DNA of 64,000 nt, taken from positions 20,257 to 84,256 of the forward strand of contig DATMBM010000010.1 in NCBI GenBank assembly GCA_035559235.1. Direction: 5' to 3'. Positions 5,597-55,119 of the stretch are shown here, piece after piece. Positions within the stretch are counted from its first letter, which is position 1, and every line of letters starts with the position of its first letter. Source of the stretch: Minisyncoccota bacterium. GTDB taxonomy: Bacteria; Patescibacteriota; Minisyncoccia; Phycocordibacterales; UBA2100. Position numbers and translations under genes: made by a program. The notes under the pieces were generated by a model. The model saw only the letters and a list, made by a program, of their open reading frames with translations, did not search any database and was not told where the DNA came from.

Positions 5597-5597
5597 T

Positions 5598-6672: not shown

Positions 6673-6683
6673 AATCAGCGCAC

Positions 6684-34777: not shown

Positions 34778-34799
34778 ACTGTCGCCCATGTATCACTTT

Positions 34800-35404
34800 C
34801 TATACCATGGTATAGAAAGTGATACATTGTTTATTTTGCCGACAAGAGTGTTTATTCCACAAGTTCGGCAGAGACGATGAGGCGATGTGTGTAGGTGCCG
34901 AGGGTCCGGCTAAAGCGCCTGCGCAGGTGATGAGCATCAAGCCGCGAGCCTCCCGTTCATGCACGATTTCAGCCATCGGCACATCATGGAGCGCATAGAC
35001 GCGCGAATCAGTAATGACAAAATGGAGTGTCTCGCCACCTGCGGTCTCGACCGTTATTTCATCGCCGACATTTGCCCGGTGCAATTTTTTGAACGCGCGT
35101 ACACATGTGCGTCCATGATTGCGTTGCCTAAATCCCCTGGGACGGCGCCATACTGATACCAGCCGACGTTGCGCGTCGAGCCATCCGGGACGTCGATTTC
35201 ACCCTTACCGTTAATTCCAACGTTTTGTATCGGAGCAGTCAGGCCAATTGACGGAATCGCGATGCGTGCGGGGTATTCCGAAGGATCGTGTACATAGTCG
35301 TCGGCGAATGCCGAAGCAAGAGCGATGACGGGTTCGACGCCGACGTTAAAATGCGGCGTTCCGAGAATCGCCGCGACCATGAGAGCGACACATGATTTCC
35401 GCAT
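34800..35404 (-). pseudogene. sortase paralog split by a frameshift near 35085-35095
   Basis: ORF 35054..35404 (ARIAIPSIGLTAPIQNVGINGKGEIDVPDGSTRNVGWYQYGAVPGDLGNAIMDAHV) and ORF 34800..35084 (VGDEITVETAGGETLHFVITDSRVYALHDVP...LMLITCAGA) align consecutively to the intact sortase at 53652..54269. That alignment includes the H and the L-I-T-C catalytic region. The join is at a T6/A6 run. Confidence 0.6.
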
Positions 35405-38228: not shown

Positions 38229-38250
38229 TTGCGCGTAACCGCCTAGGATC

Positions 38251-38273
38251 TCCGCGCATGCCGCGGATTTTTT
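38251..38273 (+). terminator. intrinsic terminator after the GH18 gene (TCCGCG-CATGC-CGCGGA + T6)
   Basis: 6-bp GC stem, 5-nt loop, then six Ts. Lies 23 nt after the stop. Confidence 0.6.
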
Positions 38274-38333
38274 GTTGAGAAATGGCATCGGCTTCACCGC
38301 TTTGTCATGCGCTGACGCTACCATTGGCGTCAT

Positions 38334-38732
38334 ATGAAAACACGTACTAAAGCAACGCTCGGCGCGGCGGCTGCGGCAACAGGCGCCGCTCTCGCCGCTG
38401 CCTATTATCTCTACGGGTCTGAAGACGCCGCGAAGCATCGGCGGCAATTGAAGAAGTGGGCACGGGACGCGGAACGCGAGATCGTGCAGGCGGCTCGCAA
38501 AGCGAAAAACAAGGTGCTGACCGACCGTAATGTCCGTGCACTCATAACCGAGGCGGCGCACCGGTACCGCATGACCAAGGATCTCGATCCGAAGGACGTG
38601 CGTGACTTTGTCGCGAGGATGCAGAGCCGCTGGTATGCCGTCCGCGAGGCGCTGGAAGAGGAGGGAACGAAGGGGAAACGTGCAAAGCGCGGCAGGCAAC
38701 GACGAGTGCGAACGGCGAAAAAGTCCCGATAA
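38334..38732 (+). CDS. basic hypothetical protein with N-terminal Ala-rich anchor
   Basis: 132 aa. TLGAAAAATGAALAAAYYLY hydrophobic segment, then a Lys/Arg-rich region. Confidence 0.4.
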   Translation: MKTRTKATLGAAAAATGAALAAAYYLYGSEDAAKHRRQLKKWARDAEREIVQAARKAKNKVLTDRNVRALITEAAHRYRMTKDLDPKDVRDFVARMQSRWYAVREALEEEGTKGKRAKRGRQRRVRTAKKSR

Positions 38733-38820
38733 TTGGCCGCGACGCATTGTGCAATCCAGACTTTGATTGCAAAGTGCGATATTCACTTGCGGCACATGGA
38801 GGGTACGAGACAATGGTGGT

Positions 38821-40275: not shown

Positions 40276-40287
40276 TACGGGGTCATG

Positions 40288-41613
40288 CTAGCGGCCGATA
40301 CCGCGATACACGACGCCTGCGTCGATGAATTGCCGCTTGTTCAGGCAGTTTTTCCCGTCGATGACTACGGAAATGCCGTTCTCGAGAAAATGGCGCGGCG
40401 TCAATTCTTTGAATGCACGATGCGCGGTCGCGACTATCGCGCCGAGAGAACCCCGGAGCGTCTCTTCTAATGACGGATGGTGCGAGTGTTCAGGAATGTA
40501 CGGATCGTAGACCGCGGGCGTCGCGCCGCGTACGCGGAGTTCCTCGATGATGCGATGCGACGGACTCTCGCGCATGTCGTCGATGTCCGCCTTGTATGCC
40601 AGGCCAAGGACGGCGATCCGTGCGCCCTGAAGCGCAAGGTTGCGACCGCGAAGCGTACGCTCAAGCAAATCAACCGTGAAGACCGGCATGTGGTTGTTAA
40701 TCTTGCGCGCGAGCGAAAGAAATTCGTGGTCGAACCCGTTCCGTTTTCCTTCGGCGATCAAGTAGTACGGGTCCACGGGAATGCAGTGACCGCCGACGCC
40801 GCACGAGGGATAGTGCGGCATAAACGCGAAGGGCTTTGTCGATGCCGCCTCGATCACGTGCACGATATCGATGCCGAGCCGGTCGAATGAAAGCGCCAGC
40901 TCGTTCACGAAGGCAATGTTGATGTCGCGAAACGTATTCTCGACGATTTTCACTGCCTCGGCTTCTTTGAGGCCGTGCATCGGCTTGATCGCGCCCGTGA
41001 TGATGGACGAATAGAAATCGACCGTGCGCTCCAGGCCGCGCGGCGTGTACGAACCGGCAACGCGATGGATATTCTCGACATGCCAGTCCTTGTCGCCCGG
41101 GTTCACGCGCTCGGGGCAGTGCGAGAGATCGAAATCGATTCCGGCCTTCATGCCGGCGCGCTCGAGGATGGGGAGAACGACGGTTTCGCATATCCCCGGG
41201 TTCACCGTAGATTCAATGACGACCAGCGATCCTGGTGCAAGGTGCGGCGCTATCCCTTCGCACGCACCAATGAGCGGCTCGAGGTCCGGCGAATGGTCGT
41301 CACGCACCGGTGTCGGCACGCAGACGACGACAATCTCGCATTCCCGCACGCGGGAGAAGTCCGTGTATGAGGTGAGCGATGTTTCGCGCAAATCCGCCGC
41401 GATCCGTTCGTCAAAGAAGGGTGATTCTCCGGCATTGATTGAGGCAACGCGCTTCTCGTTGATGTCGATGCCGCGCACGCGATGCCCCTTGCGTGCGGCA
41501 AGAAGCGCGAGCGGCAGCCCGACGTATCCCAATCCAACGACAGCGACGTCATAGGTGCGTCTGTGCACGGTCGGCGCCAGGGTGGCAACAGCATTGTCTG
41601 ATGTCTCCTGCAT
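40288..41613 (-). CDS. nucleotide-sugar dehydrogenase (UDP-glucose / UDP-ManNAc dehydrogenase family)
   Basis: N-terminal Rossmann fold VAVVGLGYVGLPLA and catalytic-Cys context GGHCIPVDP. 441 aa. Confidence 0.85.
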   Translation of the reverse strand: MQETSDNAVATLAPTVHRRTYDVAVVGLGYVGLPLALLAARKGHRVRGIDINEKRVASINAGESPFFDERIAADLRETSLTSYTDFSRVRECEIVVVCVPTPVRDDHSPDLEPLIGACEGIAPHLAPGSLVVIESTVNPGICETVVLPILERAGMKAGIDFDLSHCPERVNPGDKDWHVENIHRVAGSYTPRGLERTVDFYSSIITGAIKPMHGLKEAEAVKIVENTFRDINIAFVNELALSFDRLGIDIVHVIEAASTKPFAFMPHYPSCGVGGHCIPVDPYYLIAEGKRNGFDHEFLSLARKINNHMPVFTVDLLERTLRGRNLALQGARIAVLGLAYKADIDDMRESPSHRIIEELRVRGATPAVYDPYIPEHSHHPSLEETLRGSLGAIVATAHRAFKELTPRHFLENGISVVIDGKNCLNKRQFIDAGVVYRGIGR

Positions 41614-41756
41614 TCAAGCCGCCAGTTTCCCTGAAGCCGAAGCTTGCGCGAAATTGTACCACGACGGGAAGGAGTGCAAGGTGTTCAGACGCACAATCAC
41701 GATGTATAATGCGCCTGCTTCGCAAGGGAAACGGGGCACGTGCCACAACTGTTTCC

Positions 41757-42464
41757 ATGCTCGATCTCACTCGAAAAAGGCTACTCGTTGTCGCTCCGCA
41801 TCCGGACGATGAGATTTTTGGCTGTGGCGGCCTTATCCAGCGCGTCAAGGCGGAGGGCGGGAAAGTATACGTGCTCTATCTCACGGTCGGCGCAACAAAG
41901 GATTTCTCGAAAAAAGGGAGTTCCGGACCGGATGAGCGCATCCGAGAGATACGTCGTGTCGTAAAGCGCATGCGCATCGACGGCTTCCATATCGCGTTTC
42001 CGGGGGACGAATACATGTTACAGCTCGACCATATGCCACAGCGCACGCTCATCAACGAAATTGAGCGCGGACGCTTATCGCTCGAGACCTTGAAGCCGCA
42101 GGTCCTTGCGTTTCCCTCGTTTGCCGATTACAACCAGGACCACCGCGCCGCAAACGAGGCGTGCATCGCCGCAACGCGCCCGGTCAACGGCTCCTTCAAG
42201 CACACACCGCGCATGCTGCTTGAATACGAGCTGCCGTACACGGGCTGGAGTCCGACGTCCGGGCGCGAGCCGAATTTTTTCCTGCCGCTTGATGACGCGG
42301 CGCTTTCCGCGAAGCGGGAGGCCTTGAAGCTCTATGCGTCGCAGATGAAAACAAAAAAGGGGCCTATTTCGGTTTATGCCTCCGAGCAACTTGCCAAGAT
42401 GCGCGGCGTTCTCTCGGGCGTCGACGCCGCGGAGGCGTATGTGCTGCGCCGCCTTCTCGTCTAA
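41757..42464 (+). CDS. PIG-L/LmbE-family N-acetylglucosaminyl deacetylase
   Basis: VVAPHPDDEIFGCGG signature. Start chosen at MLDLTRK; the upstream part of track ORF 41493 is Arg-rich non-coding. Confidence 0.75.
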   Translation: MLDLTRKRLLVVAPHPDDEIFGCGGLIQRVKAEGGKVYVLYLTVGATKDFSKKGSSGPDERIREIRRVVKRMRIDGFHIAFPGDEYMLQLDHMPQRTLINEIERGRLSLETLKPQVLAFPSFADYNQDHRAANEACIAATRPVNGSFKHTPRMLLEYELPYTGWSPTSGREPNFFLPLDDAALSAKREALKLYASQMKTKKGPISVYASEQLAKMRGVLSGVDAAEAYVLRRLLV

Positions 42465-42470
42465 CCTGTT

Positions 42471-43313
42471 ATGAGCACGCGACTCGTCGGATACCAACCG
42501 CAGTATTTTCCAAGATTGCACTACTATGCACGCATTCTGAATGCCGACATCTTTAAGATTTCGGATAATCTGCAATATGTGCGACGTCACGCGTATCCAT
42601 CGTCCGACGGAACGAGGCATAACGGCCCGTCCTATCAGGCGCACTCACCGATAAAAACTTCGCAAGGGATGTACCTCTTGGACGTACCCACGAGCCACGT
42701 ACTGCCGCAGCGTGAGCGCATGATGAATACGGTGAGCTTGGATTACTCGAAAGAGTGGCCGCGCAAACATATACGGATTCTCGAGCTGAATTATGGAAGG
42801 GCGCCGTTCTTCAAGAAGCTCATGCCCGGCATCACCGCGCTTCTGAATCAACCGTACGAAAATTTGGCTGCGTGCACCATTGCGAGCATGGTTTGGGGGC
42901 TCGCGGTTCTTTTCGAATTTCCCGTCGCACTGTTCGAGTCCGTGCCCGCCGAACTCGTCGCAATGTTTTCACATCACGGATTTCGCCTGAAGAAAATTGT
43001 GAGAATGTCCGAAGAAGAACTACACCCGGCGGACAAGACGAGCGGAGAAGACGTCAATAGCTGGATAGTGCATCAATGCCGCGCGCTCGGCGCAACCGAA
43101 TATTACTTTGGGGGCACGGCGGGAGCGGCGTATCTCGATCTCGAGCGCATCGCCCGTTCTGGCATTACGCTCGTACAGCAGAACTGGCACTGCGAAGAAT
43201 ACCCGCAGCAGTTCCCGCGGCACGGCTTCATGCCAAACCTCTCCATTCTTGATTTACTGATGAATGTTTCTCCGGCAGCGGCGCGGGCGATTCTCGCGAC
43301 GCCCAACCAATAG
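42471..43313 (+). CDS. WbqC-like family protein (paralog 1)
   Basis: N-terminal GYQPQYFPRLHYYARI resembles the QPxYFP..GYF motif I recall for the WbqC-like family. The two paralogs are clearly related to each other along their full length. Confidence 0.5.
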   Translation: MSTRLVGYQPQYFPRLHYYARILNADIFKISDNLQYVRRHAYPSSDGTRHNGPSYQAHSPIKTSQGMYLLDVPTSHVLPQRERMMNTVSLDYSKEWPRKHIRILELNYGRAPFFKKLMPGITALLNQPYENLAACTIASMVWGLAVLFEFPVALFESVPAELVAMFSHHGFRLKKIVRMSEEELHPADKTSGEDVNSWIVHQCRALGATEYYFGGTAGAAYLDLERIARSGITLVQQNWHCEEYPQQFPRHGFMPNLSILDLLMNVSPAAARAILATPNQ

Positions 43314-43340
43314 TATGGAGCATCTTTTTTTTCTAGAGGT

Positions 43341-43359
43341 TGCGAATTTTGAATTCGCA
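43341..43359. repeat. perfect palindrome TGCGAATT-TTG-AATTCGCA between the two WbqC-like paralogs
   Basis: 8-bp arms read from the sequence. Lies 10 nt upstream of the paralog-2 start codon. Confidence 0.55.
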
Positions 43360-43368
43360 CACGTGCTT

Positions 43369-44220
43369 ATGGCGCTTTCAATTCGACTTACCGGTTACCA
43401 GCCGCAGTATTTTCCCCGATTACACTACTTCGCGCGCATCCTTGATTCCGATATTTTTACCATCTCCGATTATTTACAATATGTGCGAAAGCACACCTAT
43501 CCGAATCCTGACGGCACGACGCATCGCGGCGTCTCGTATCAGGCTCATACGCCCATAAAGACGGCGCAAGGAGCGTTCATGCTCGACATTCCCGTCAAAA
43601 AAGGGGGAGAGCAGGGTCGGCAGAGCCTGAATGAAGCCGAAATCGACTACGCCTCAGCGTGGCAGCAGAAAAACATCAATAGCATTCACCACAACTACCA
43701 CCGGGCCACAAACTACTCCGCGGTTTTCCCGTCGCTCTCGCTCGTGATGATGCAGCGGTACGGCTCGCTCGCCGAGTGCACCATCGAGTCGATGCTCTGG
43801 GCGCTGAGCATGATCCTCGAAGTGCCGTGCTATCGACCAAAAGGACCGACGCTCGCGCAGATTAACGATGCACTGGCGCAAAGTCCCTTTCGCCTGAGGC
43901 GCATCGTGCGAATGTCGGAGACACCGATTCTTCCGGCCGACAAGGAGAAGCGGGACGCCAACGATTGGCTGGTGGAGACGTGCGCGTACTTTAACGCCGA
44001 TGAATACTATTTCGGCGGGACGAGCGCGGCTGCCTACATGGACTTTTCGCGGTTTGAGAAGGCGGGCATTGCGCTCGTGCGGCAGCAGTGGACGTGCGCG
44101 CCGTATCGGCAGCAGCATGGTGAGTTCATTCCGAACCTTTCCATTATCGATCTCCTCATGAACGTGCCGGTTGCAGAGGCGCGCGAGATTCTTCACCCAA
44201 AGAGTGCCGCGGAACGCTAA
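43369..44220 (+). CDS. WbqC-like family protein (paralog 2)
   Basis: MALSIRLTGYQPQYFPRLHYFARILDSDIFTISDYLQYVRKHTYP parallels paralog 1 residue by residue. Confidence 0.5.
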   Translation: MALSIRLTGYQPQYFPRLHYFARILDSDIFTISDYLQYVRKHTYPNPDGTTHRGVSYQAHTPIKTAQGAFMLDIPVKKGGEQGRQSLNEAEIDYASAWQQKNINSIHHNYHRATNYSAVFPSLSLVMMQRYGSLAECTIESMLWALSMILEVPCYRPKGPTLAQINDALAQSPFRLRRIVRMSETPILPADKEKRDANDWLVETCAYFNADEYYFGGTSAAAYMDFSRFEKAGIALVRQQWTCAPYRQQHGEFIPNLSIIDLLMNVPVAEAREILHPKSAAER

Positions 44221-44229
44221 GATGCGCCT

Positions 44230-45351
44230 ATGCTGAAGTATGTTGGCGTCGCAGCAGTGCTTGTGCTTGGTGCGATGATAATCTTCCAAAATTTTCGCGT
44301 GCAGCCCGAGCCGGTTGCCGCGCCCGCGCGCGAAGAGGTACGAGAAGCCGCGGAGGAGCGGGTGCCAAGTGCTCGCGAGCAGGCGCACGAACGCACGGGA
44401 GCGACGCTCGTATTTGGTGCAATTCCTTACTGGGACCAGGCCCGCGCGACCGCAATGTTTAAAAAACATGTGGAAGATATCGACGCGGTCGCACTGTTTT
44501 GGTACCGCCTTAATCGAGATGGTTCTATCGGAAAGTATCAAAACGCCCGCGAGGACCAGTCGCTCATCGAGTTTGCGCATCAGCACGGCGTCGCCGTGTA
44601 TGCGCTGGTCGCGAATTTGCCGGAGAGCGGGGATTGGGATCGGGAGCGTGTCGCTGCCGCCATCGGAACACCCGAGGCGCGCGCAGCGCACATTCAGTCG
44701 CTTGTTGCGCTCGCGCGCGAAAAAAATTTTGACGGCATCAATATTGACTACGAATTTTTGAGTGACGCACAGACCGATGACTTTACGACGTTCATCAACG
44801 AGCTTGGCGCGGCACTCCGCGCCGAAGGGAAAAAACTTAAAGTCGCTATTCACGCGCAGCGACCAGGCTCCGAGACCCGCGGACAAGACATTGCAGCACT
44901 CACCGGCGCGGATTATCTCGCGTTTATGACGTACGACCAGCATTGGGAGACGTCTGACCCGGGCGCGAACGCCGAAATTGGGTGGACGCGCGAAGTCTTG
45001 GAACATGCAGCACGACTCGGCGTGCCGATGAACAAGATCCTCCTCGGCATTCCGCTCGATGGCTACAATTGGCGTGGGGAGGACGGTGATTGGGAAGAAG
45101 CCGAGGGAGTCGATTACGTAAGCGCACTCGAACTTGCTGATGCCGAAGGTGCGACCGTCCGCTATGACGAAAGCGTCGAAGCGCCGTATTTCACGTTTGG
45201 AAACAGCGATGGCAGCGAGAACGAAGTATGGTTTGAAAATGTGCAGAGTTTTCGGCCCAAGTACGAACTTGCGAAAGAATTCGGCCTCGCGGGCGTCGCA
45301 TTGTGGAAATTCGGCGCGGAAGATGAGCGGATTTATGATGTGATTGAGTAG
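44230..45351 (+). CDS. secreted glycoside hydrolase family 18 protein (second copy)
   Basis: NFDGINIDYEF (DxxDxDxE). N-terminal anchor MLKYVGVAAVLVLGAMII. The antisense 614-aa ORF 43654..45498 is rejected. Confidence 0.8.
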   Translation: MLKYVGVAAVLVLGAMIIFQNFRVQPEPVAAPAREEVREAAEERVPSAREQAHERTGATLVFGAIPYWDQARATAMFKKHVEDIDAVALFWYRLNRDGSIGKYQNAREDQSLIEFAHQHGVAVYALVANLPESGDWDRERVAAAIGTPEARAAHIQSLVALAREKNFDGINIDYEFLSDAQTDDFTTFINELGAALRAEGKKLKVAIHAQRPGSETRGQDIAALTGADYLAFMTYDQHWETSDPGANAEIGWTREVLEHAARLGVPMNKILLGIPLDGYNWRGEDGDWEEAEGVDYVSALELADAEGATVRYDESVEAPYFTFGNSDGSENEVWFENVQSFRPKYELAKEFGLAGVALWKFGAEDERIYDVIE

Positions 45352-45394
45352 CTTTCCATTTTTCGCAATATAGTAATATCGTAGCGCAGGCAGA

Positions 45395-45673
45395 TTAACG
45401 AGCACGTCCGATCCCCCCGAAGACGCCGATCGTCGCATCCACGGTGGATTTCGCGGCATTGAGATCGAACACGTCGGCACTGTGCGTGGCGCATTCAACG
45501 CCCATTGATTCGATCGTGCGCTTTGCGTTCTCGAGGCGTGGGATCGATACGTCGCACAGCATAATCTTCATGCCCGTGCGCGCCAGTGCTTCAGCACAAC
45601 CGAAGCCGATACCCGGACGGCCTTCTTCAAGGCCAGATCCTGTAACGAGCGCAACGTTTCCTTTGAGTTCCAT
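45395..45673 (-). pseudogene. N-terminal fragment of a short-chain dehydrogenase/reductase (Rossmann fold only)
   Basis: KGNVALVTGSG...GIGFGCAEALARTG (TGxxxGIG). It ends at ...FGGIGRAR*, exactly where the SDR NNAG motif would follow. No continuation in any frame. Confidence 0.4.
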
Positions 45674-45774
45674 GGTAGATGCTCCTATAGGTTTTCCCCA
45701 GCGGCACTATACCTACATTGCCACTCACACGCAATGAAGAGGGCGGGAACCCTGGTGGTTCCCGCCCGACGCGC

Positions 45775-46464
45775 CTACGCGCGATGTTGTGCAATAAGAT
45801 CTTTCACGGCAGTCTTGAACTCCGGCAATTTTTCCTTGATGTCGAAGATGCCGCGGAGGATTGTGCCGACCGGTTCCGGATCGCCGGGCGGAGGTTCGAA
45901 GATCACCACGTCGGCAGCCCTTTGATCTGGATGGCACACATCCGATTGCTCGCCGACGAGACGGATTTTGCCAAAAAGCCCCAGCTCCTCCAAGATATGT
46001 TCGCCATGCCCGATGCATCGTGAGATGAACGGTGGATCGGCGACTAGGACGATTTCGCTGATGCCCGCATCCCGGCAAAATGGAATGGCGTACCGAAGTT
46101 CGCCAATCGTGTTCTTGGGCTCGAGCATCGGCTTCGCAATCCGCCGGATCCGGTTCTTGAGGCGCCACCGATTGAGCTTCGATAGACGCTCAAGTCCGTC
46201 AAATTCGAAGAGCTTAGAGAAGTTGTCCAGTATGTACTGGATCGTGTACTCCGATTCCTTGAGTTCACGCCCGCGATACTCTTTCGATGTTGCACCAGAC
46301 CCAAAGAGCAAGTGTGATGCGTGCGGATACTTATCAGCGTACAGCTGAATCGCCCGTGAGGCACGACCGAGTAGTTTCGGCGGTTTGCCGAAAATCATGT
46401 CTTCCCAATCTTTCGCGCGGAGCGACAGACCATGTGCCACAAGCGCCGTCTCTCTAGTAGGCAT
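45775..46464 (-). CDS. DUF218 (YdcF/ElyC/SanA-like) domain protein
   Basis: The pattern HASHLLFSGGATS ... NTIGELRYA ... EIVLVADPPFISRC fits DUF218 (SGG..., NT.eN, lVTs.fHm.R) from memory. Start chosen at MPTRETALVAHG. Confidence 0.45.
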   Translation of the reverse strand: MPTRETALVAHGLSLRAKDWEDMIFGKPPKLLGRASRAIQLYADKYPHASHLLFGSGATSKEYRGRELKESEYTIQYILDNFSKLFEFDGLERLSKLNRWRLKNRIRRIAKPMLEPKNTIGELRYAIPFCRDAGISEIVLVADPPFISRCIGHGEHILEELGLFGKIRLVGEQSDVCHPDQRAADVVIFEPPPGDPEPVGTILRGIFDIKEKLPEFKTAVKDLIAQHRA

Positions 46465-46542
46465 TTCGCATTCTCCGTAATGTCGCCTGACGAGGTTCGA
46501 CAGGACTTGCGGCACCCTATCACGTGAGATTGCTGCAGGCAA

Positions 46543-48267
46543 TTACGACGCCTTTTCAGCGTAGGCGATGCGTGCAGGGCTTTTCCAGCGACCGTCGGCA
46601 CTCGGGGGCACGAAAAGACCGGTGATCATGGTGCGCATGAACACAATGGCCTCAAGGTAGCGAAGCGGGAAGAATCCGAAGGCGTACACGAGAAGCAATG
46701 GCTTCCGTTCAAGCACAGTGATGAAAATGGTTATTAGGTAGTCGAGAACGAACACGGATACGATAATCGTGTAGAGGGTCATATTGGATACAAGGAATTC
46801 TCCCGGGATCGGAGCGTCAAAGATTTTGGTTGCGCCGTACAGCAAGAGGAGGAAGGGAAGAGCAAGCGATATGAGCGATGCAATGATGAGTTCGACCGCG
46901 AAAATCGCCATGGTCGTCCAAAAAAAGCTGAACCAAATGCCGTGTCTCCGTACGGTCTGCCAGAACCCGAGGTACCAGCGACTGATCTGTCGGTGAAAAT
47001 CGTGGAGGGAATATGGCTCCTGATCGATGACAATCGCGTACGGGCAATAAGCAATCTTACCCAGGCGCTTATGATGCACTTCGAACGTCATGTTGAAATC
47101 CTCGATGATGAGATCGGGAACATCGATATCGATTTTTCGCAGTACGCTCGTGCGGTAGATGCTGCTGCCCCCCGGAATAATCGGTGTTACGTTCATCGGG
47201 CGCCATGTCTGGCCGTACCGGATCGTAAATTGAAGTACGCGCCATAGTTGGACTCGGTACGCCGTAAAAAGCATGTCCCAGCGCGGAAGATAGTGTGTAG
47301 GCCAGTGCGGCACGGCGCGGCCGACAATTGCCGCCGTCTCGGGGTCGTCGAACTGCGGGAGCGTCCGTTTGAAATAATCAGGAGCGATTTTGAGATCGGC
47401 ATCCATGATGAGAACCGCCTTGTAGCGTTCGTACAAATTATGCGTTTTCAGCATATAGGTAAGCGCTCGTGCTTTGCCTCGGTTTGGCTGGATATCTTCG
47501 GCTGTACACCCGAGTGACCGGGCGATTTTGACCGTATCATCCGTTGAACCGTCGCTCGCGATATAAATGTGTTTCGCGGACGTGTTTTGGAGAATCGACA
47601 TGACAGTGCTTTCGATCGTAAGTGCTTCATTGTGCGCCGCTATAAGGACGGCAACTTCTTCAGGCTGAACACGGGCCGCTTTCGCTTTCGCCTTACGCGC
47701 GCTTGCTCGTTCGCGCTCAAGCGCGTTTAAGGCATATGCCATGTGGCCGCCGAGAAACGACGCGAGGACTGTGACAATGATCCACACACCTTCCCAAAAC
47801 AAGGCCTCACCGGTAAAAACGAACTCAATCCCGGCGAGAACCAAGAGCACAATGCCTGATACGATTGAACCGAATCCGACAAGCCCGGCGACCGCATACG
47901 GATTGTCGATATAGATGCGCGTCGCAAGATAGCTGCCAAGCGTCGTGCAACCGAGCCAGATGATGAGAAGGGCGAGGGCAAGTGAGAGAAATGTCTCTTC
48001 GGTCGTAAGCATCGCGTCGAACGGGCCGAACGTCAAAAGGAAAAGGAGAAAAAGCGAAAGACTAACGCCAACTCCACCGAGGCATGCGACCGTGAGATGC
48101 AAGAGGGATCGCCCATGGTGCGATTCTCGCAATTCATGAATGGTCTCGAAGACAAATCGAAGGCACCCCATGAGGATCCAAAACGGGTAGCTGATGCCGA
48201 ACATCTGGAAAACCCCGAACATACGGCTATCCTGCGAGTTGCGCAGACAAAACGCAAACCGGCGCAC
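46543..48267 (-). CDS. processive family-2 glycosyltransferase (cellulose/chitin-synthase-like) with N- and C-terminal TM domains
   Basis: GT2 core (VAVLIAAHNEALTIESTV, IASDGSTDDT, IMDADL) and the QxxRW motif (QISRWYLGFWQ). Multiple TM helices on both sides. Confidence 0.75.
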   Translation of the reverse strand: MRRFAFCLRNSQDSRMFGVFQMFGISYPFWILMGCLRFVFETIHELRESHHGRSLLHLTVACLGGVGVSLSLFLLFLLTFGPFDAMLTTEETFLSLALALLIIWLGCTTLGSYLATRIYIDNPYAVAGLVGFGSIVSGIVLLVLAGIEFVFTGEALFWEGVWIIVTVLASFLGGHMAYALNALERERASARKAKAKAARVQPEEVAVLIAAHNEALTIESTVMSILQNTSAKHIYIASDGSTDDTVKIARSLGCTAEDIQPNRGKARALTYMLKTHNLYERYKAVLIMDADLKIAPDYFKRTLPQFDDPETAAIVGRAVPHWPTHYLPRWDMLFTAYRVQLWRVLQFTIRYGQTWRPMNVTPIIPGGSSIYRTSVLRKIDIDVPDLIIEDFNMTFEVHHKRLGKIAYCPYAIVIDQEPYSLHDFHRQISRWYLGFWQTVRRHGIWFSFFWTTMAIFAVELIIASLISLALPFLLLLYGATKIFDAPIPGEFLVSNMTLYTIIVSVFVLDYLITIFITVLERKPLLLVYAFGFFPLRYLEAIVFMRTMITGLFVPPSADGRWKSPARIAYAEKAS

Positions 48268-48300
48268 CTGCGCGCAACAACCTCCGGGGGTTGTTGATTT

Positions 48301-49329
48301 TCATACGACTGGGGCAAGTTTGATTGCCGGGGCGTCTTCAAGCACTTCTTCACGAGTCCGTTCGTCAGAAGCTTGCGCGACTACTGAGCTTACTGTCTCA
48401 ATGTGAAGGCCGATCATCTTCTGCAGGCCAATCGTAATTTCGACCTCTTGTTGCCAGCCGAGCTGTTTGGCTTTCTCAATCGACGGCTTGCGGTGCCGAT
48501 GATCCTCAATAAAGTGCGGCACGTACTCAATGCCCTCGTCGTGCGAAGTCAATTCGATGACGAGTTCGGCAAGCTCGCGCACCGTCATCGGATGCTCGCT
48601 GCCGATGTTGTACGCCTCGCCGGGGAGGCCTTTGTCCATGACCAACCGAATCCCGCGCACGAGGTCGTCGACATACAGGTGTGTGCGCGTTTGCGAGCCG
48701 TCGCCGTAGACGCGCAGCGGCTCCTTCCGCAGGACGCTCGAAATGAACTGCGGGATGACCCGTCGGTCCGAAAGCGACATGCCGGGGCCGTAGGTATTGA
48801 AGACGCGCACGACTCGCGCGTCGAGTCCGTGGTAGCGGACGTACGCCGCCAAGCAGCTTTCCGAAAAACGCTTACCTTCCTCATAGGCGCTCCTGATTCC
48901 CATCGGGTGCACGTTGCCGGTATAGTCCTCATCTTGAGGCGTTCGCTCAGGCTGTCCGTAAATTTCCGCGGTTGATGTGAACACCATCTTTGCCTCATGT
49001 TGCTTGGCGAGTTCCAACACGTTGAACATACCGTACGAGCACGCATGCAGCATCTCTGTGGCAAGGCGTGTCAGGTTCGGGACGCCCGTCGGGCAGGCGA
49101 GGTGGTAGATGTAATCGAGCCGCGTCGGGAATAATTGCGCGAGCGCTGGATTCGCGATGTCGAACTCGTAAAAAATAAAGTTGTCGTGCTGCGAGAGCGC
49201 AGCAACATTGTTTCGGTTGCCGGTGACAAGATTGTCGACGCAGTGGACGATGTGTCCTTCGTCGAGTAGTGATTTGCAAAGGTTGGAGCCGATGAATCCG
49301 GCCCCTCCGGTGACAAGGATAGATGCCAT
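48301..49329 (-). CDS. NAD-dependent epimerase/dehydratase, UDP-glucuronate decarboxylase (UXS)-like
   Basis: ILVTGGAGFIGSNL (Rossmann) and catalytic YEEGKRFSE (YxxxK). Start chosen at MASILVTGG. The upstream part of the track ORF is Arg/Gly-rich. Confidence 0.8.
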   Translation of the reverse strand: MASILVTGGAGFIGSNLCKSLLDEGHIVHCVDNLVTGNRNNVAALSQHDNFIFYEFDIANPALAQLFPTRLDYIYHLACPTGVPNLTRLATEMLHACSYGMFNVLELAKQHEAKMVFTSTAEIYGQPERTPQDEDYTGNVHPMGIRSAYEEGKRFSESCLAAYVRYHGLDARVVRVFNTYGPGMSLSDRRVIPQFISSVLRKEPLRVYGDGSQTRTHLYVDDLVRGIRLVMDKGLPGEAYNIGSEHPMTVRELAELVIELTSHDEGIEYVPHFIEDHRHRKPSIEKAKQLGWQQEVEITIGLQKMIGLHIETVSSVVAQASDERTREEVLEDAPAIKLAPVV

Positions 49330-49594
49330 AGTGGACGTATCCGGATGTCCCGATCCGCCTCCGCGTGCGCGGCCCCGCAGCATCAACGAGAAATGCGTGT
49401 CACGAGGACGCAGATTCTCGTACAGTGCTGTATCGGATTGCTTGGCTGATTCCCCCATATCATTCTAGTCGAAACTCGTCTAAAAGTCTTGCGCGCGCGG
49501 TGTGGATAGTCTCACTGTGTGGGTACCATCATGATGACGTAATGAACGCGCGCCAATAGCGGCGGATGGACAGAAATGCGGTATCATTGCATGT

Positions 49595-52312
49595 GTGAAT
49601 ACGTGGTACACGAAATCGATACCCGCGGTGCTTGAGGCGCTTCGAACGGCCGAGACAGGATTGACTGAGGACGAAGCGCGGCGGCGCCTCCAAGAGGCGG
49701 GACCAAACACGTTGCCCGAGCCGGAAGTAGAAAGTTATGTCGCGATATTCCTCCGGCAATTCAAAAGCCCGCTCATCTACATTCTTTTTGCCGCGGCGCT
49801 TTGCGTGTATTGGCTTGGTGACACCGCGGACTCGCTCGTGATCCTCGCGGTCCTCCTTTTCAATGCAGTTGTCGGTGCCATCCAGGAGGGGCGTGCGCAA
49901 AACACGCTGCGGGCGCTGCGCTCGTTTTCCGAAACGACGGCGACGGTGCTGCGCCTTGCCGGCAAGGGAGGATCTGCGGAAGAAAAAATCATTTCCGACG
50001 CAGGCGTTGTCCCGGGTGACATCATCATCCTGCGTGAAGGGGAAAAGGTTCCGGCGGATGCGCGCGTGATCGTCGCGCGCAACCTTGCCACGGACGAAGC
50101 GGCGCTTACCGGCGAGAGCGAGCCGGTCGTCAAAGGGACTGCGCCGCTTCTCAAGCCCGATCTACCCGTCGCCGAACAAAAGGCGATGGTGTTCAAAGGC
50201 ACTCATATCGTCGCCGGCTTCGGACACGCTGTCGTCGTCGCGACGGGGTCGCGCACGGAAATCGGCGCGATCGCACGCGAAATTTCCGGTGTGAAGGACG
50301 AGATCCCGCTGCAGCGGGACATACGAAAACTCTCGCGGGTCATCATCGGCGTCGTCGTCGCGATGAGCGTCATCCTCTTTTTTATCGGGCGGGCGATCGG
50401 CCACAGCGCGCAAGAGATGTTTGCGACCGTCGTGACGCTTTCGGTGTCCGTCATCCCTGAGGGACTTCCGGTCGTCATGACGATCGTGCTTGCGACGGGC
50501 GTGTGGCGTATGTCGAAGCGCAACGCCCTCGTCAAACGATTGCAGGCAGTCGAAGCGCTTGGCCAGGCGCGCGTCATCGCGACGGATAAGACCGGCACAA
50601 TTACCAAAAATGAAATGGTCGTGCAGCGCGTCTATGCCGGCGGCGAGACGTACGACGTCTCCGGCGTCGGGTACGAGCCTGAGGGAGCCGTCCATAAAGA
50701 CGGCGTCCGCATCGCCGCGAGCGAGCACGCCGATCTCCTCGAGGCGGCGCGCATCGCCGCCCTCGCCGCGAGCGCGCGCATCATCTATTCGGAAGAAGAA
50801 CGGCGCTGGTCCGTCGCTGGTGATCCGACCGAGGCGGCGCTCCAGGTGTTTGCACGCAAAGCGCAGCTCAGTCGCGACGAACTGGAAGCCGAGCATCCGC
50901 TCCTTGCTGAAATCCCGTTCGATTCATCCCGCAAGTACAAGGCGATGCTCCACAAGGACAAGCGCGGCGGACGGCTGTCGGTCGTCGGCGCGCCTGAGGT
51001 GGTGCTGACGCTTTCCTCATCCGTCGTGCGCGCGGGTAAGAAAATGGCGCTCACGAAGGCGATGCGAGAGGAGATCGAGGGCACCATTCAGCATTTCTCG
51101 CGCCAGGGACTGCGCGTCGTCGCGCTCGCGCGCGCGAATGCAGCGGCAACGAACACGCTGGCCGAAAACGACATCCACGGACTCACCTTTGTCGCGCTCA
51201 TCGGCATGAAGGACGGGCTTCGCGAGGGCGTGCACGACGCGCTCGCGCAAGCGCGCGACGCCGGGCTTCGCGTCGTCATGATTACGGGCGATCATGCCGT
51301 GACCGCGCGCGCGATAGCGCAGGAAGCCGGCATTTTCAAAGTGGGCGAGAAAACGCTGACCGGCGACGAGATCGATTCTCTTTCCGACGAAGAGCTCGCG
51401 CGCGCCGTTGAGCGCGTCTCGGTGTTCGCACGAGTGACACCCGCACACAAATTACGCATCGTGAGCGCGTACAAGGCGCGCGGCGAAATCATCGCGATGA
51501 CGGGAGATGGGGTGAATGACGCGCCGTCGCTGGTCGCCGCGGACCTCGGCGTCGGTATGGGGAAGATCGGCACGGAAGTCGCGAAGGAAGCATCTGATAT
51601 TGTCCTCCTCGACGATAATTTCTATTCGATCGTCGCGGCCATCGAAGAAGGCCGCAACATTTACAAGACCATCAAGAAGGTCATTTTGTATTTGTTTTCG
51701 ACATCGGTGGGCGAGGTGCTCACCATCGCAGGCGCGCTGTTCGTGTCGCTGCCTTTGCCGCTTTTGCCTGCGCAAATCATCTGGCTCAATCTTGTGACAG
51801 ATGGTTTCTTGACTATCGCGCTCGGCATGGAGCCGAAGGATCAGAACCTGCTGTCGGAAGAGTTTGGCAAGGCGGAACGGTCGCTTGTCGATCGCCTCAC
51901 GTTTACGCGCATGGTGGTGATGGGCGTGCCGATGGCGCTCGGCACACTTTTCCTTTTCAGCCTGTACCTCGACGACATGGCGAAGGCGCTCACAGTTTCT
52001 CTCACGGCGCTTGCCGTCTTCCAGTGGGTGAACGCGTGGAACTGCAGGAGTGAGAAAGAATCGGTGTTTACGACAAATCCGATTTCCAATATCTACCTCG
52101 TCGCGGCGCTCTTTGTGGTGATCGCACTGCAACTGGTCGCTGTCTATAATCCGTTTGCGCAAACGCTTCTCCACACGACGGCGCTCACGTGGTTCGACTG
52201 GCTCCTCATCGTCCCCGTCGCATTTACGGTGCTCTTTGCCGAGGAAGCGCGCAAATGGATCACGCGCCGCGTTGATTCCATTGCCATTCCGGGTGTGTTG
52301 GCACGGTCTTAA
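49595..52312 (+). CDS. P-type cation-transporting ATPase (type II, Ca2+/Mg2+-like)
   Basis: Phosphorylation site DKTGTITKN, hinge GDGVNDAPSL, TGES-like TGESEPV, and 10 predicted TM. GTG start. Confidence 0.9.
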   Translation: MNTWYTKSIPAVLEALRTAETGLTEDEARRRLQEAGPNTLPEPEVESYVAIFLRQFKSPLIYILFAAALCVYWLGDTADSLVILAVLLFNAVVGAIQEGRAQNTLRALRSFSETTATVLRLAGKGGSAEEKIISDAGVVPGDIIILREGEKVPADARVIVARNLATDEAALTGESEPVVKGTAPLLKPDLPVAEQKAMVFKGTHIVAGFGHAVVVATGSRTEIGAIAREISGVKDEIPLQRDIRKLSRVIIGVVVAMSVILFFIGRAIGHSAQEMFATVVTLSVSVIPEGLPVVMTIVLATGVWRMSKRNALVKRLQAVEALGQARVIATDKTGTITKNEMVVQRVYAGGETYDVSGVGYEPEGAVHKDGVRIAASEHADLLEAARIAALAASARIIYSEEERRWSVAGDPTEAALQVFARKAQLSRDELEAEHPLLAEIPFDSSRKYKAMLHKDKRGGRLSVVGAPEVVLTLSSSVVRAGKKMALTKAMREEIEGTIQHFSRQGLRVVALARANAAATNTLAENDIHGLTFVALIGMKDGLREGVHDALAQARDAGLRVVMITGDHAVTARAIAQEAGIFKVGEKTLTGDEIDSLSDEELARAVERVSVFARVTPAHKLRIVSAYKARGEIIAMTGDGVNDAPSLVAADLGVGMGKIGTEVAKEASDIVLLDDNFYSIVAAIEEGRNIYKTIKKVILYLFSTSVGEVLTIAGALFVSLPLPLLPAQIIWLNLVTDGFLTIALGMEPKDQNLLSEEFGKAERSLVDRLTFTRMVVMGVPMALGTLFLFSLYLDDMAKALTVSLTALAVFQWVNAWNCRSEKESVFTTNPISNIYLVAALFVVIALQLVAVYNPFAQTLLHTTALTWFDWLLIVPVAFTVLFAEEARKWITRRVDSIAIPGVLARS

Positions 52313-52468
52313 TTGTTCTTTCATACGGCGCTGCTAGCATCAGATGCGAGTCGACGTTAGCAGAAGCTAATACCGTCCTCGTTATGGATAACGAAAACGA
52401 CGGCCGCAGCGACCAAGGTGAAGACCAGACGTAGCTGCGCCTCGACAGCCTGAACATACGCGCCCGTT

Positions 52469-52497
52469 GCCACAGCGCCCCTTCGGGGCGTTGTGGC
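52469..52497. other. very stable GC-rich hairpin (12-13 bp stem, UUCG-containing loop) in a 277-nt intergenic region
   Basis: GCCACAGCGCCCC-TTCG-GGGCGTTGTGGC with one G-U wobble. No flanking T-run on either strand. Confidence 0.5.
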
Positions 52498-52588
52498 ACA
52501 GTATCGTGAGGCGCATCTACGGCTGGCTCCGCGCTCGGCAGTTTGATACAATCTTCGTATACGCGTACGACTCTCAATCGGAATTCTT

Positions 52589-53221
52589 GTGTGCCTGCTT
52601 CTGGTACCTGTGCTGAGCGCGGCGCAGGAGCTGCGCATCGTCGAGGGCCCGTCGGTCACAGTCGATGATCCGGAAGCGTACCGGGCGTACTACGGCAAGC
52701 TCGCGGGCGAAGAGCATGTGTACCACATCGAGTCGGCAGACCCGTTCCGTCTTTCTGTCGTGATTTTGACGCCGAACGTCGAAGGGGCACGCACCGATTT
52801 TTCCGCCGCCGTGTACGACAAGATCGACACTGACGAGCCGGTGATCGTACTCGACGGGACGGTATCCGAATGGCAGTGGTTCTTCGATACTGCGGGACGC
52901 GATGAATATCTTGCCGGGCCGGTATTGCGGGGCGGTCTCCCACAGGGCGCCTACGAGGTCCGCGTTTCTAATCCCGATAACCAAGGCGCATACGTGCTCG
53001 TCCTCGGCGAAGACAGCTGGTTTTCCAATTCGGGCCTCATCAGCCGCTATAGCGCCCTGCCCACCATCAAGACGGAATTCTTCGGAAAGCCTGCCTCGCA
53101 GGCATACGTGACGCCGCTCCTTATGTGGCCGGTTATTGCGCTCCTGATCGTCATCACAATCATAGTTTTTGCGCTCTACATTGTCCGCAGACGCCGCGCT
53201 CCGGCAGAGATCGCGATATAG
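52589..53221 (+). CDS. hypothetical exported protein with C-terminal TM anchor
   Basis: GTG start. N-terminal hydrophobic segment. C-terminal LLMWPVIALLIVITIIVFALYIVRRRR anchor. Confidence 0.45.
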   Translation: MCLLLVPVLSAAQELRIVEGPSVTVDDPEAYRAYYGKLAGEEHVYHIESADPFRLSVVILTPNVEGARTDFSAAVYDKIDTDEPVIVLDGTVSEWQWFFDTAGRDEYLAGPVLRGGLPQGAYEVRVSNPDNQGAYVLVLGEDSWFSNSGLISRYSALPTIKTEFFGKPASQAYVTPLLMWPVIALLIVITIIVFALYIVRRRRAPAEIAI

Positions 53222-53371
53222 GCACGGCGGCGCTGCGCACTCTTTCACCTCCATTTCACCGGTAAGAACCGATACTGGAAGCGGTCCGCCTCGGCTCGCG
53301 AGGCGAGACGGGTCGAGTTGAGGAGCTTAATCATCGCCCCCGAGCGCAGCGGTGCAACGGGGTACCATAGT

Positions 53372-53599
53372 ATGGTAAAGAAATACCTTGCAAGCCTTTG
53401 GGCTGCTGCGCTCTGGATGTTCGCTGGCGTCGCGAGCGCACAGACGACAAGTCCGACAACGACCGCGACAACGACGCCTGGCGTCCCGGACACGGGAGCA
53501 GGAGACGTCGTCATGAACAGCGTCGTTCTCGGAGCTGTGGCGATCATCGCAATCGGTGCGGCTGCGTACCTCTACTACATGAGGAGCCCGAACGGATAG
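53372..53599 (+). CDS. minimal sortase-substrate-like protein (signal peptide, ~20-aa Thr-rich mature region, VPDTG sorting motif, TM helix, basic tail)
   Basis: MVKKYLASLWAAALWMFAGVASA | QTTSPTTTATTTPG | VPDTG | AGDVVMNSVVLGAVAIIAIGAAAYLYY | MRSPNG. Lies 52 nt upstream of the intact sortase gene. Confidence 0.5.
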   Translation: MVKKYLASLWAAALWMFAGVASAQTTSPTTTATTTPGVPDTGAGDVVMNSVVLGAVAIIAIGAAAYLYYMRSPNG

Positions 53600-53651
53600 T
53601 TGTGCAGAATCGCGGGCGTCTGCGTAAGGCAGACGCCCGCCGGTTGTCTGT

Positions 53652-54269
53652 ATGTATATGATACGTTGGACACTCAACGTCGCACTTGTCGTCATACTCA
53701 CGGCAGCTGCTGCGGTATTTACATTCGTTTTTATCCGCACGTTTTTCTATTTGCCGGACGAGGAAATTCGCGCGCCGCCCGGAGAAACGCTCGAAGAGGC
53801 AGTCGATCCGACGCAGCATCCGGCGCGGCTCGTCATTCCCGCGATTGGCGTCGATGCAGACGTACAACATGTCGGCATCAACGAAGCGGGGAACATGGCG
53901 ACGCCGAGCAATTTTGAAGATGTCGGTTGGTACAAATACGGTGTTGCGCCCGGCGGAAGAGGGAGTGCGGTGATCGCCGGACATGTCGACAACAGCCTCG
54001 GGTTGCCCGGCGTCTTCAAGCGGCTCAATGAACTCAAGTCGGGCGACGATATTTTCGTCGAATCGGCAAGCGGCGAGCGGCAGCACTTCGTCATCGTCTC
54101 AACTCGCTCATATCCCTACGACGACGTGCCGGTCGACGTCGTCTTCAACCCCCAAGGTTCCGCGCGCCTCAATCTCATCACGTGTGAGGGCCGGTGGCTT
54201 TCTGAAAACCGGACATACGACCAACGGCTCGTCGTGTTTGCGCGCCTTGCAAACGAAACCGAAACCTAA
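53652..54269 (+). CDS. sortase (intact paralog)
   Basis: N-terminal TM anchor, then the sortase fold with catalytic His (AGHVD), L-I-T-C catalytic Cys context (NLITCEGRW) and a downstream Arg. Confidence 0.75.
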   Translation: MYMIRWTLNVALVVILTAAAAVFTFVFIRTFFYLPDEEIRAPPGETLEEAVDPTQHPARLVIPAIGVDADVQHVGINEAGNMATPSNFEDVGWYKYGVAPGGRGSAVIAGHVDNSLGLPGVFKRLNELKSGDDIFVESASGERQHFVIVSTRSYPYDDVPVDVVFNPQGSARLNLITCEGRWLSENRTYDQRLVVFARLANETET

Positions 54270-54345
54270 GCCTAAACGATCAGCACGATACATTACAGCA
54301 CGTATTTCATCTCGCCGTCATCTGACGGTACGGTATACTGAGCTC

Positions 54346-55119
54346 ATGCTTAAATACGTCGGTTTTGCGCTCGTCGCGATCATCCTCGTCTTGAGCGGCT
54401 ACCACCTCATCTTGTCGCAACAGCAGCCCGTCCCTTCTGGCGGCGAAGAAATGGCCGTGCGGGGCGAATTTGTGAACTATTTTGAAAATCGCCAAGGGTA
54501 TTACGCGGAGCCCGTTGCGGGCGGAAACTACCCCGGCGTTATCATGGTGCACGAATGGTGGGGTTTGAACGACAACATCGCAGGGATGGCGGAAGAGCTG
54601 GCCGCGCAAGGATATCGCGTACTTGCCGTTGACCTATTTGGCACGGTCGCGGCAACCTCAAGCGAAGCGCAGCGGCAAGTCGCGGCGCTCGACCAGGCGA
54701 AGGCCATCGAAAACATGAAGACCGCTGAGCGATACTTGCGCGACAGGGGATCTCAAAGGATCGCGTCGTTGGGCTGGTGCTTCGGCGGCGCGCAGTCGTT
54801 GCAACTCGCACTCTCGGAAAGCGAGGAACTCGATGCGACGGTGATTTACTACGGCACGCTGACGGACGATCGCAATCGACTCCAAAATATCTCGTGGCCG
54901 GTGCTTGGGGTCTTTGGCGCGGAGGACCAGTCGATTTCAACTTCGTCAGTGACGGCATTTGAAAACGCGCTCAACGAGCTGGGAATCGAAAATGAAATAT
55001 ACGTCTATCCGGGAGTCGGTCATGCGTTCGCCAACCCGTCGAACCCGAACTACGCGCCGCGCGAGACGGCCGATGCGTGGGCGAAGACCTTGGCATTTCT
55101 TGAGCAGCATTTGAAGTAA
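54346..55119 (+). CDS. dienelactone hydrolase family protein (membrane-anchored)
   Basis: GVIMVHEWWGLN, nucleophile elbow GWCFGG and GHAF (His). N-terminal anchor MLKYVGFALVAIILVL. Confidence 0.75.
   Translation: MLKYVGFALVAIILVLSGYHLILSQQQPVPSGGEEMAVRGEFVNYFENRQGYYAEPVAGGNYPGVIMVHEWWGLNDNIAGMAEELAAQGYRVLAVDLFGTVAATSSEAQRQVAALDQAKAIENMKTAERYLRDRGSQRIASLGWCFGGAQSLQLALSESEELDATVIYYGTLTDDRNRLQNISWPVLGVFGAEDQSISTSSVTAFENALNELGIENEIYVYPGVGHAFANPSNPNYAPRETADAWAKTLAFLEQHLK

Follow-up and report, generated by a model that had tools for sequence, protein, structure and literature searches.

We describe a two-gene locus on a 64,000-nucleotide stretch of a Minisyncoccota bacterium genome (NCBI GenBank assembly GCA_035559235.1, contig DATMBM010000010.1, positions 20,257 to 84,256 of the forward strand), referred to here as the window and numbered from its first letter. 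One gene encodes a 75-residue precursor, the mini-substrate, in which a predicted mature peptide of only 18 residues lies between a signal peptide and the remainder of a C-terminal sorting signal; the other, directly downstream, encodes a sortase. Our analysis indicates that the pair is probably a dedicated module, in which the sortase anchors this cargo-less, Thr-rich peptide to peptidoglycan. Minimal sortase substrates of this kind form a widespread, largely unannotated family in Paceibacterota.

The mini-substrate and its family

The open reading frame (ORF) runs from an ATG at 53372 to a TAG at 53597-53599, and its product reads, from N- to C-terminus, MVKKYLASLWAAALWMFAGVASA, QTTSPTTTATTTPGVPDT and GAGDVVMNSVVLGAVAIIAIGAAAYLYYMRSPNG. 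By inspection, the signal peptide has a KK n-region, a 15-residue h-region and an ASA-Q site, which points to cleavage by signal peptidase I between A23 and Q24. The predicted mature peptide contains 10 Thr among its 18 residues and neither Lys nor Cys. VPDTG is part of an extended conserved motif, TTTPG-VPDTG-AGD, and is followed by 33 residues that include a hydrophobic helix of ~21 residues and end in an MRSPNG tail. This is the layout of a sorting signal, in which xPxTG stands 20-45 residues from the C-terminus ahead of a helix and a positive tail. A preliminary description of the locus had proposed a precursor of exactly this type (75 residues, with signal peptide, VPDTG, transmembrane (TM) helix and basic tail), a mature region of about 20 residues and a 52-nt gap to the sortase. 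All three proposals hold, with a tail reduced to a single Arg, 18 predicted mature residues ending at VPDT, and 52 nt between the stop codon and the sortase ATG at 53652. The description had also suggested a search for other sorting-signal proteins; a regular-expression scan of all six frames found no second sorting-signal ORF in the 64-kb window (G+C 55.6%), leaving the mini-substrate as the only one there.

A word-index search recovered 19 homologues of 64-90 residues that align end to end with the mini-substrate. Across the 20 sequences, G19, S22-A23-Q24, T33-T34-T35-P36-G37, P39, T41-G42, G44-D45 and Y66-L67 are invariant. The ratio of non-synonymous to synonymous substitution rates (dN/dS) is 0.18 at dS 0.63 between the window gene and its closest DNA homologue (L004), and 0.08-0.36 in the remaining pairs. 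Purifying selection acts on this ORF, a genuine gene rather than a chance reading frame. When the 20-sequence profile was searched against 1.84 billion cluster representatives (clusters at 50% identity), it retrieved 209 clusters at E ≤ 1e-3, of which 35 reached E ≤ 1e-10, nearly all of them proteins of 60-100 residues with the same architecture that matched end to end. Conservation of the small ORF, whose absence the preliminary description had named as grounds for refutation, is borne out by these searches.

Most family members are short. Among 161 parsable members, the median precursor has 79 residues, and the predicted mature part, taken from the Gln after AXA up to xPxT, has a median of 18 residues, a minimum of 10 (QTTTPGVPNT) and a maximum of 79. 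Thr accounts for 38% of mature residues, Cys is absent, Lys occurs in 0 of the 135 members whose mature part is ≤30 residues, and the +1 residue is Gln in 153 of 161. The P, T and G of xPxTG are conserved at 98-100% over 166 family sequences, part of which arises by construction, as the members were collected with the family profile. The consensus reads T-T-T-P-G-[VTAI]-P-[NSD]-T-G-A-G-[GD]-D...N. A profile built from the sorting signals of small and large substrates together retrieved only proteins of 52-86 residues.

Expansions of low complexity rich in T, S and G are common in the family. An internal second PG-xPxTG unit lies within the Thr-rich region of P0184, P0231, P0263, P0276 and the L015 gene at 3555-3827 (e.g., ...TPGVPNTGTTGS...TTTPGVPNTGAGGD), which suggests that the low-complexity passenger grows through tandem duplication of the PG-xPxTG region. 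One database protein, P0154 (151 residues), joins a mini-substrate N-terminus, up to the TM helix, in frame to the sortase from GHVDNGLGL onwards; either a deletion or an assembly artefact probably accounts for this fusion.

Existing annotation captures little of the family. The mini-substrate has no match in Pfam or NCBIfam at normal thresholds, and the LPXTG_anchor model TIGR01167 scores it at 12.5 bits (E = 0.19; cut-off 15.9), while picking up 18/20 family members at E ≤ 10 (best 0.0013). Most members are unnamed or 'hypothetical', and IMG calls two of them 'LPXTG-motif cell wall-anchored protein'. Neither the 75-residue protein nor a 93-residue version is present in a collection of 15 billion proteins, which does include both neighbors from the same metagenome-assembled genome (MAG), the sortase HWO07387.1 and the dienelactone hydrolase HWO07388.1. 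Since both flanking proteins are recorded, the gene was probably overlooked when its genome was annotated.

The sortase and its pairing with the substrate

The downstream gene had been called an intact sortase, and its product agrees with that description. Residues 60-199 match Pfam PF04203 (peptidase C60) with 77.3 bits (cut-off 26.6), and His111 (GHVD), Cys178 (LITCEG) and Arg192 (YDQRLVV) are invariant in 27 sortase sequences. The AlphaFold2 (AF2) model, with a predicted local distance difference test (pLDDT) score of 87.1, places an N-terminal membrane helix at residues ~2-32, and the top 50 matches listed by Foldseek against the PDB are all sortases, with E down to 1e-9. Judged by alignment and model, the enzyme has a catalytically competent sequence and predicted fold. 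It is identical (100%) to the NCBI record HWO07387.1, 'class F sortase [Candidatus Paceibacterota bacterium]', which starts at the second ATG (53658). On account of this difference in start codon, an exact-sequence look-up of the window protein in the contig index gave no match, and the record was reached via P0020/HWO07387.1.

With respect to class, the class F model NF033748 scores best (139.7 bits, under its curated cut-off of 166), ahead of class E (40.7 bits), class D (28.1 bits) and class C (16.7 bits; cut-off 160); on these scores the enzyme is class F-like. A phmmer search against the PDB gave no match and a profile search only weak matches to classes D, C and E, so sequence alone assigns no structural class.

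These scores bear on the suggestion, also made in the preliminary description, that the peptide is pilin-like. In such a scheme, the sortase would polymerize the peptides head to tail via their N-terminal amines, building a fibre or a chain that resembles a mucin, a scheme which the nearly invariant N-terminal Gln, the internal PGxPxTG duplications and an apparent excess of substrate over enzyme (see the hairpin below) could be taken to favor. The absence of Lys from all 135 short members, however, leaves no pilin-type isopeptide nucleophile, and the enzyme is not a class C sortase. An N-terminal Gln also tends to cyclize, which blocks the amine, and a Gln likewise follows the signal peptide of the unrelated protein encoded at 52589-53221, so it may reflect a local signal-peptidase preference. 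We consider a pilin-like role very improbable, and this part of the description finds no support.

The pairing of the two genes was examined from both sides. All seven mini-substrates that were looked up (P0015, P0001, P0013, P0297, P0309, P0017 and P0296) have a Pfam-Sortase gene 2-143 nt downstream, and the flanks of these pairs differ (GSDH/GluDH, DoxX/IMPDH, recombinase/FtsH, and PAP2 with a MASE1 kinase). Scanning the sortase alignment against one genome per GTDB species returned at least 586 relatives, and the best 80 were kept, almost all labelled Paceibacterota, Kaiser-, Adler-, Nomura- or Taylorbacteria, or 'Patescibacteria'. In ~65 of the ~80 loci with enough upstream DNA, the gene directly upstream is co-oriented with the sortase and encodes, at its C-terminus, xPxTG followed by GG..N, a TM helix and a basic tail. 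Mini-substrates (≤45 residues, Thr-rich) are the commonest upstream class, with 28 loci, followed by Cys-rich repeat cargo (14), long T/S/G low-complexity proteins (8) and other globular cargo (7), with a further 7 loci in which the N-terminus is undetermined; some upstream reading frames span ~1000 residues. The proposed sortase-substrate relationship and the expectation that the pair recurs in relatives are thus both supported, in 7/7 look-ups from the substrate side and in ~80% of loci from the sortase side.

With the pairing established, we can weigh the suspicion that the precursor is not a sortase substrate at all, but a small membrane protein with an incidental xPxTG or the decaying remnant of a larger surface protein. 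A TIGR01167 score under the cut-off and the absence of the exact protein from a collection that holds both its neighbors speak for it. It is difficult to reconcile with the near-complete conservation of the motif P, T and G, the adjoining sortase in every substrate-side look-up, the low dN/dS, the intact signal peptide and more than 200 clusters of the same short architecture. The conservation data already largely refute this explanation, and we assign it hardly any weight.

Comparing the two kinds of substrate shows which positions they share. In mini and cargo substrates alike, P(−2) and G(−1) are conserved at ~79-92%, the P, T and G of the motif at 96-100%, G(+6) at 81-100% and N(+12) at 54-71%; these are presumably the positions that the sortase reads. 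Position 0 is V, T or A in mini-substrates and L in cargo substrates. Thr(−3) is conserved at 93% in mini-substrates versus 35% in cargo substrates, which indicates that the Thr run of the mini-substrates is kept for a reason beyond sortase recognition. The preliminary description had raised the prospect of a specificity for a different motif; instead, the same motif, extended to PG-xPxTG-xGG, is found on the adjacent substrates. Two distinct pairs occur in a single MAG, RYN_395, with a mini-substrate in L021 and a large-cargo substrate in L077, which argues that each sortase is dedicated to its neighboring substrate.

All-against-all ORF clustering of 84 loci found no third gene conserved with the pair beyond lineage-specific synteny. 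The 210-residue membrane protein encoded upstream of the mini-substrate was considered as a third component and rejected: it occupies that position only in the closest relatives (L001-L005) and lacks a sorting motif. It has a short signal peptide (..SAAQ/ELR), a domain of ~155 residues with conserved AYRAYYGKL and FFDTAGRDEYLAGP, and a C-terminal TM helix with an RRRR tail and no xPxTG. In 16/84 loci, the sortase is directly followed by a convergent gene for a sensor histidine kinase of the hybrid or MASE1 type, which could reflect lineage synteny or a link between sortase activity and signalling.

A second sortase paralogue on the minus strand of the window is broken over at least three reading frames, with one frameshift near 35093-35102 and another after LITCAG that puts the TYTHRLIV segment, with the catalytic Arg, out of frame. 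No sorting-signal ORF adjoins it. It is probably a pseudogene, an assembly error being the alternative. The main features are collected in the table.

Features of the window, followed by histidine-kinase genes of related loci (numbered within those loci)
Feature	Position	Strand	Remarks
Mini-substrate precursor gene	53372..53599	+	75 aa; stop included; ORF, homologues, dN/dS
Sec signal peptide, residues 1-23 (MVKKYLASLWAAALWMFAGVASA)	53372..53440	+	KK n-region, h-region, AXA rule
Predicted mature product, residues 24-41 (QTTSPTTTATTTPGVPDT)	53441..53494	+	18 aa
Putative sortase recognition pentapeptide VPDTG, residues 38-42	53483..53497	+	Predicted scissile bond between T41 and G42; position-specific conservation
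Sorting-signal remainder, residues 43-75	53498..53596	+	AGDVVMN spacer with conserved Asn, helix, YLYY motif, MRSPNG tail
GC-rich hairpin in the 52-nt spacer	53612..53640	+	12-bp perfect stem GCGGGCGTCTGC, loop GTAAG
Membrane-anchored sortase, 205 aa	53652..54269	+	Pfam match, invariant triad, AF2 model
Sortase catalytic residues	His111 53982-53984; Cys178 54183-54185; Arg192 54225-54227	+	Sequence alignment
Second sortase paralogue, frameshifted	34800-35404	-	44-47% identical to the intact sortase
Membrane protein, 210 aa	52589-53221	+	No Pfam or NCBIfam match
Cell-envelope glycan cluster	37023-49458		4-16 kb upstream of the pair; P-type ATPase between
AOX-like gene, 230 aa	34085-34777	+	Pfam AOX (alternative oxidase), E = 9e-10
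Type I restriction-modification system (HsdM, HsdS, DUF3800 protein, HsdR)	14131-21757	+	
NucS/PDDEXK-like nuclease gene	12696-13640		Upstream of the restriction-modification system
Histidine kinase, related loci	L031, L036, L050, L051, L056 (~4530-6690); L091 3420-5213	-	Sortase neighbor

Expression, proposed pathway and alternatives

The spacer between the two genes is occupied by a hairpin whose extended helix spans ~53602-53651 and reaches the sortase start codon, with a folding free energy (dG) of -37.3 kcal/mol and z = -5.1 relative to shuffled sequences. Rfam has no family within 52300-54500. Hairpins with dG ≤ -15 follow the substrate stop in 50/61 related loci (median z = -4.7), and many of them have U-tracts. 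The median dG is -24.0 after the substrate stop versus -11.8 kcal/mol after the sortase stop (Wilcoxon p = 3.5e-9), and windows taken from within the sortase coding sequence likewise fold less stably than the substrate-stop hairpins (-16.7 kcal/mol, p = 9e-6). The element is likely an attenuator or terminator, or a stabilizer of messenger RNA (mRNA). Because the hairpin after the substrate is far stronger than that after the sortase, we presume that attenuation or mRNA stabilization leads to more substrate than enzyme. Structural subunits and peptide precursors encoded ahead of processing genes show the same pattern.

Upstream of the mini-substrate, a perfect 15-nt palindrome over the start codon (TACCATAGTATGGTA/TACCATAgTATGGTA, 53363-53377) was considered as an operator and discarded, as it is not conserved in L004, L001, L005 or L008. 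A partly conserved block ~70-110 nt upstream (..TTCA..ATAA.CAAAAGCGGTCGAGA..) could represent the promoter region. A scan for sigma-70 promoters and terminators returned nothing on the plus strand around the gene.

Assembled into a pathway, these elements would act as follows. Sec would export the 75-residue precursor, whose signal peptide would be removed after Ala23, while the C-terminal helix and basic tail hold it in the membrane. The neighboring sortase, with Cys178 as nucleophile together with His111 and Arg192, would cut between T41 and G42 of VPDTG and capture the peptide as a thioacyl intermediate at T41. G42 and residues 43-75 would be left behind in the membrane. The enzyme would then move the 18-residue QTTSPTTTATTTPGVPDT onto the free amine of a peptidoglycan precursor, so that the wall would become decorated with short Thr-rich peptides, each probably bearing O-glycans and an N-terminal pyroglutamate. 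The intergenic hairpin would allow a large excess of substrate over enzyme, as suits a bulk surface component. Candidate target peptides for the sortase, with the predicted cut between T and G, are TTTPGVPDTGAGD and TTTPGVPDTGAGDV. The canonical sortase pathway on which this scheme is modelled is established knowledge (PMC8225981, PMC13251363).

Several observations weigh against this pathway. The basic tail is a single Arg, the first motif position is Val rather than Leu, and TIGR01167 leaves the protein under its cut-off, as given above. About 20% of the related sortases have no adjacent substrate, and the window sortase may have unlinked substrates outside the 64 kb scanned. The window hairpin has no canonical U-tract and fails the T-run rule of the terminator scan, and its effect on expression is conjectural. 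Cleavage of the mini-substrate and the use of peptidoglycan as acceptor are both steps that we infer from the conserved sorting signal and the sortase pairing. An 18-residue peptide is too short to cross a thick wall, so that a display function is not obvious. Even so, a wall-anchored Thr-rich peptide, as the preliminary description had envisaged, remains the best-supported reading.

As for what the peptide does, an O-glycosylated, hydrophilic 'bristle' is a plausible interpretation, favored by the conservation of the Thr run beyond the need for recognition and by the common T/S/G expansions. Glycosylation and pyroglutamate formation would both be predicted modifications. Across the 84 loci, no glycosyltransferase gene regularly accompanies the pair, and in the window the glycan-synthesis genes lie several kb away with unrelated genes between. 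That cluster comprises two GH18 proteins, an HlyD-like protein, UDP-glucose dehydrogenase, a PIG-L deacetylase, two WbqC proteins, a GT2 and an NAD-dependent epimerase; GT2 or epimerase genes also occur near some mini-substrate relatives. A bolder extension, which we think unlikely, is that an abundant Thr-rich (glyco)peptide of 10-18 residues serves as a bulk building block of the envelope, capping a large share of the peptidoglycan stem peptides as 'bristles' or joined head to tail.

The nature of the acceptor invites a different proposal. The sortase may process the precursor without using peptidoglycan as acceptor. Hydrolysis would then set the Thr-rich peptide free, to be secreted or to act as a signal; alternatively, the enzyme would ligate it to some other part of the envelope, for instance a surface protein, a lipid-linked glycan or an S-layer component. 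The product has the size of a peptide hormone, and a small precursor gene followed by a hairpin and a processing-enzyme gene resembles the order in operons for ribosomally synthesized peptides. Class F sortase acceptors are, moreover, unknown (PMC13251363). Yet a mature part of low complexity whose length varies freely from 10 to 79 residues is unlike a specific signal, the same sorting signal occurs on large surface-type proteins, for which wall anchoring is parsimonious, and no conserved partner or acceptor gene was found in the 84 loci. We therefore regard a non-peptidoglycan destination as doubtful.

Function could instead reside in the precursor or in the membrane remnant (GAGDVV...YLYYMRSPNG), acting as a regulator, a decoy or priming substrate, or a membrane reporter of sortase activity. 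The model is Streptococcus gordonii, in which cleaved sorting-signal peptides are reportedly sensed by a histidine kinase. The C-terminal part is conserved like the rest (G44, D45, N49, the YLY motif and R71), as sortase recognition and membrane retention already predict; the kinase that adjoins the sortase in 16/84 loci is missing from most loci, the window locus included. Since a functional remnant would also leave the mini-specific conservation of the Thr run unexplained, we judge it improbable. Anchoring of the Thr-rich peptide to peptidoglycan is the interpretation carried forward below.

Elsewhere in the window, the AOX-like gene is unusual in that bacteria of the Candidate Phyla Radiation (CPR) are, to our knowledge, generally thought to be without respiratory components. 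A perfect palindrome of ~40 nt (TGTATCACTTTCTATACCAT followed by ATGGTATAGAAAGTGATACA) at ~34787-34826 separates this gene from the convergent broken sortase and possibly serves as a bidirectional terminator. The table also lists a restriction-modification system of type I and a nuclease gene upstream of it.

Relation to known systems and significance

Sortases are known for hanging functional proteins on the wall. Like Gram-positive LPXTG proteins, the mini-substrate combines a signal peptide, xPxTG, a hydrophobic helix and a basic tail; unlike them, it has no passenger domain (18 mature residues, with a family minimum of 10), its first motif position is V, T, A or I rather than L, and the motif is extended to TTTPG-xPxTG-xGG...N. 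The biochemistry would be conventional; what is unexpected is a sortase that would usually attach ~10-20 residues to the wall.

Dedicated pairs of one sortase and one substrate have precedents in the class GN ('marine') sortase TIGR03784, whose target is encoded next to it, and in SrtB with IsdC. The locus described here shares with them adjacent, co-inherited genes and a private variant of the sorting motif, and several pairs can occur per genome (L021 and L077). The substrates of those systems are sizeable functional proteins (vWA-domain or haem-binding), whereas the commonest here is a low-complexity peptide of 10-30 residues. For a glycan that reaches the wall on a sortase substrate, a model is the housekeeping SrtA of Actinomyces oris, whose key substrate is not an adhesin but the glycoprotein GspA (Wu et al. 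2014, cited in PMC11623550). GspA is a full-length protein whose glycosylation by an LCP enzyme has reportedly been demonstrated by experiment, unlike that predicted for the mini-peptide, and the pair described here lacks a linked LCP gene. Archaeosortase substrates of the PGF-CTERM type carry Thr-rich, O-glycosylated linkers before the C-terminal sorting signal, and they resemble the mini-substrate in placing a Thr-rich stretch directly before a C-terminal signal that is removed by a dedicated transpeptidase. Archaeosortases differ in belonging to an unrelated enzyme family and in acting on large S-layer substrates that receive a lipid anchor.

Class F sortases, with Propionibacterium acnes SrtF and Actinoplanes missouriensis SrtF1-4 as examples (NF033748), are the best-scoring class for the window enzyme, and no class F structure is among its PDB matches for comparison. 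No physiological role is known for them, and a strain of Actinoplanes mutated in all four srtF genes shows no phenotype (PMC13251363). Next to Actinoplanes srtF1 and srtF4 lie uncharacterized genes whose products combine a signal peptide with a TM helix and a basic tail and are suspected to be dedicated substrates (PMC13251363). The present case differs in that the host belongs to the CPR rather than the actinobacteria and that the adjacent substrate has a clear xPxTG and no cargo. Sortases occur in more than half of CPR genomes (PMC6744442), and the CPR envelope is essentially uncharacterized (PMC5220378).

Our searches of open-access papers and bioRxiv turned up no account of sortase substrates that are Thr-rich and cargo-less, nor any of this CPR pair; searches of the same sources for sortase substrates of CPR, Patescibacteria or Parcubacteria, or for small Thr-rich LPXTG proteins, returned general mentions only. 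The work draws attention to a set of short genes that mostly go unnamed in annotation pipelines or are probably missed by them. The extended motif TTTPG-xPxTG-xGG is directly testable in vitro and could serve sortase-mediated ligation.

Together, these findings show that the commonest partner of a large clade of CPR sortases is a sorting signal with almost no passenger, represented by more than 200 sequence clusters. This points to wall modification via a short gene-encoded peptide in poorly characterized CPR envelopes, and the pair offers a concrete handle both on those envelopes and on class F-type sortases. Should the peptide prove to be a bulk building block, it would provide a first physiological role for class F-type sortases, and ultra-small CPR cells would have a gene-encoded peptide in the place of teichoic acids or of other secondary polymers of the wall.

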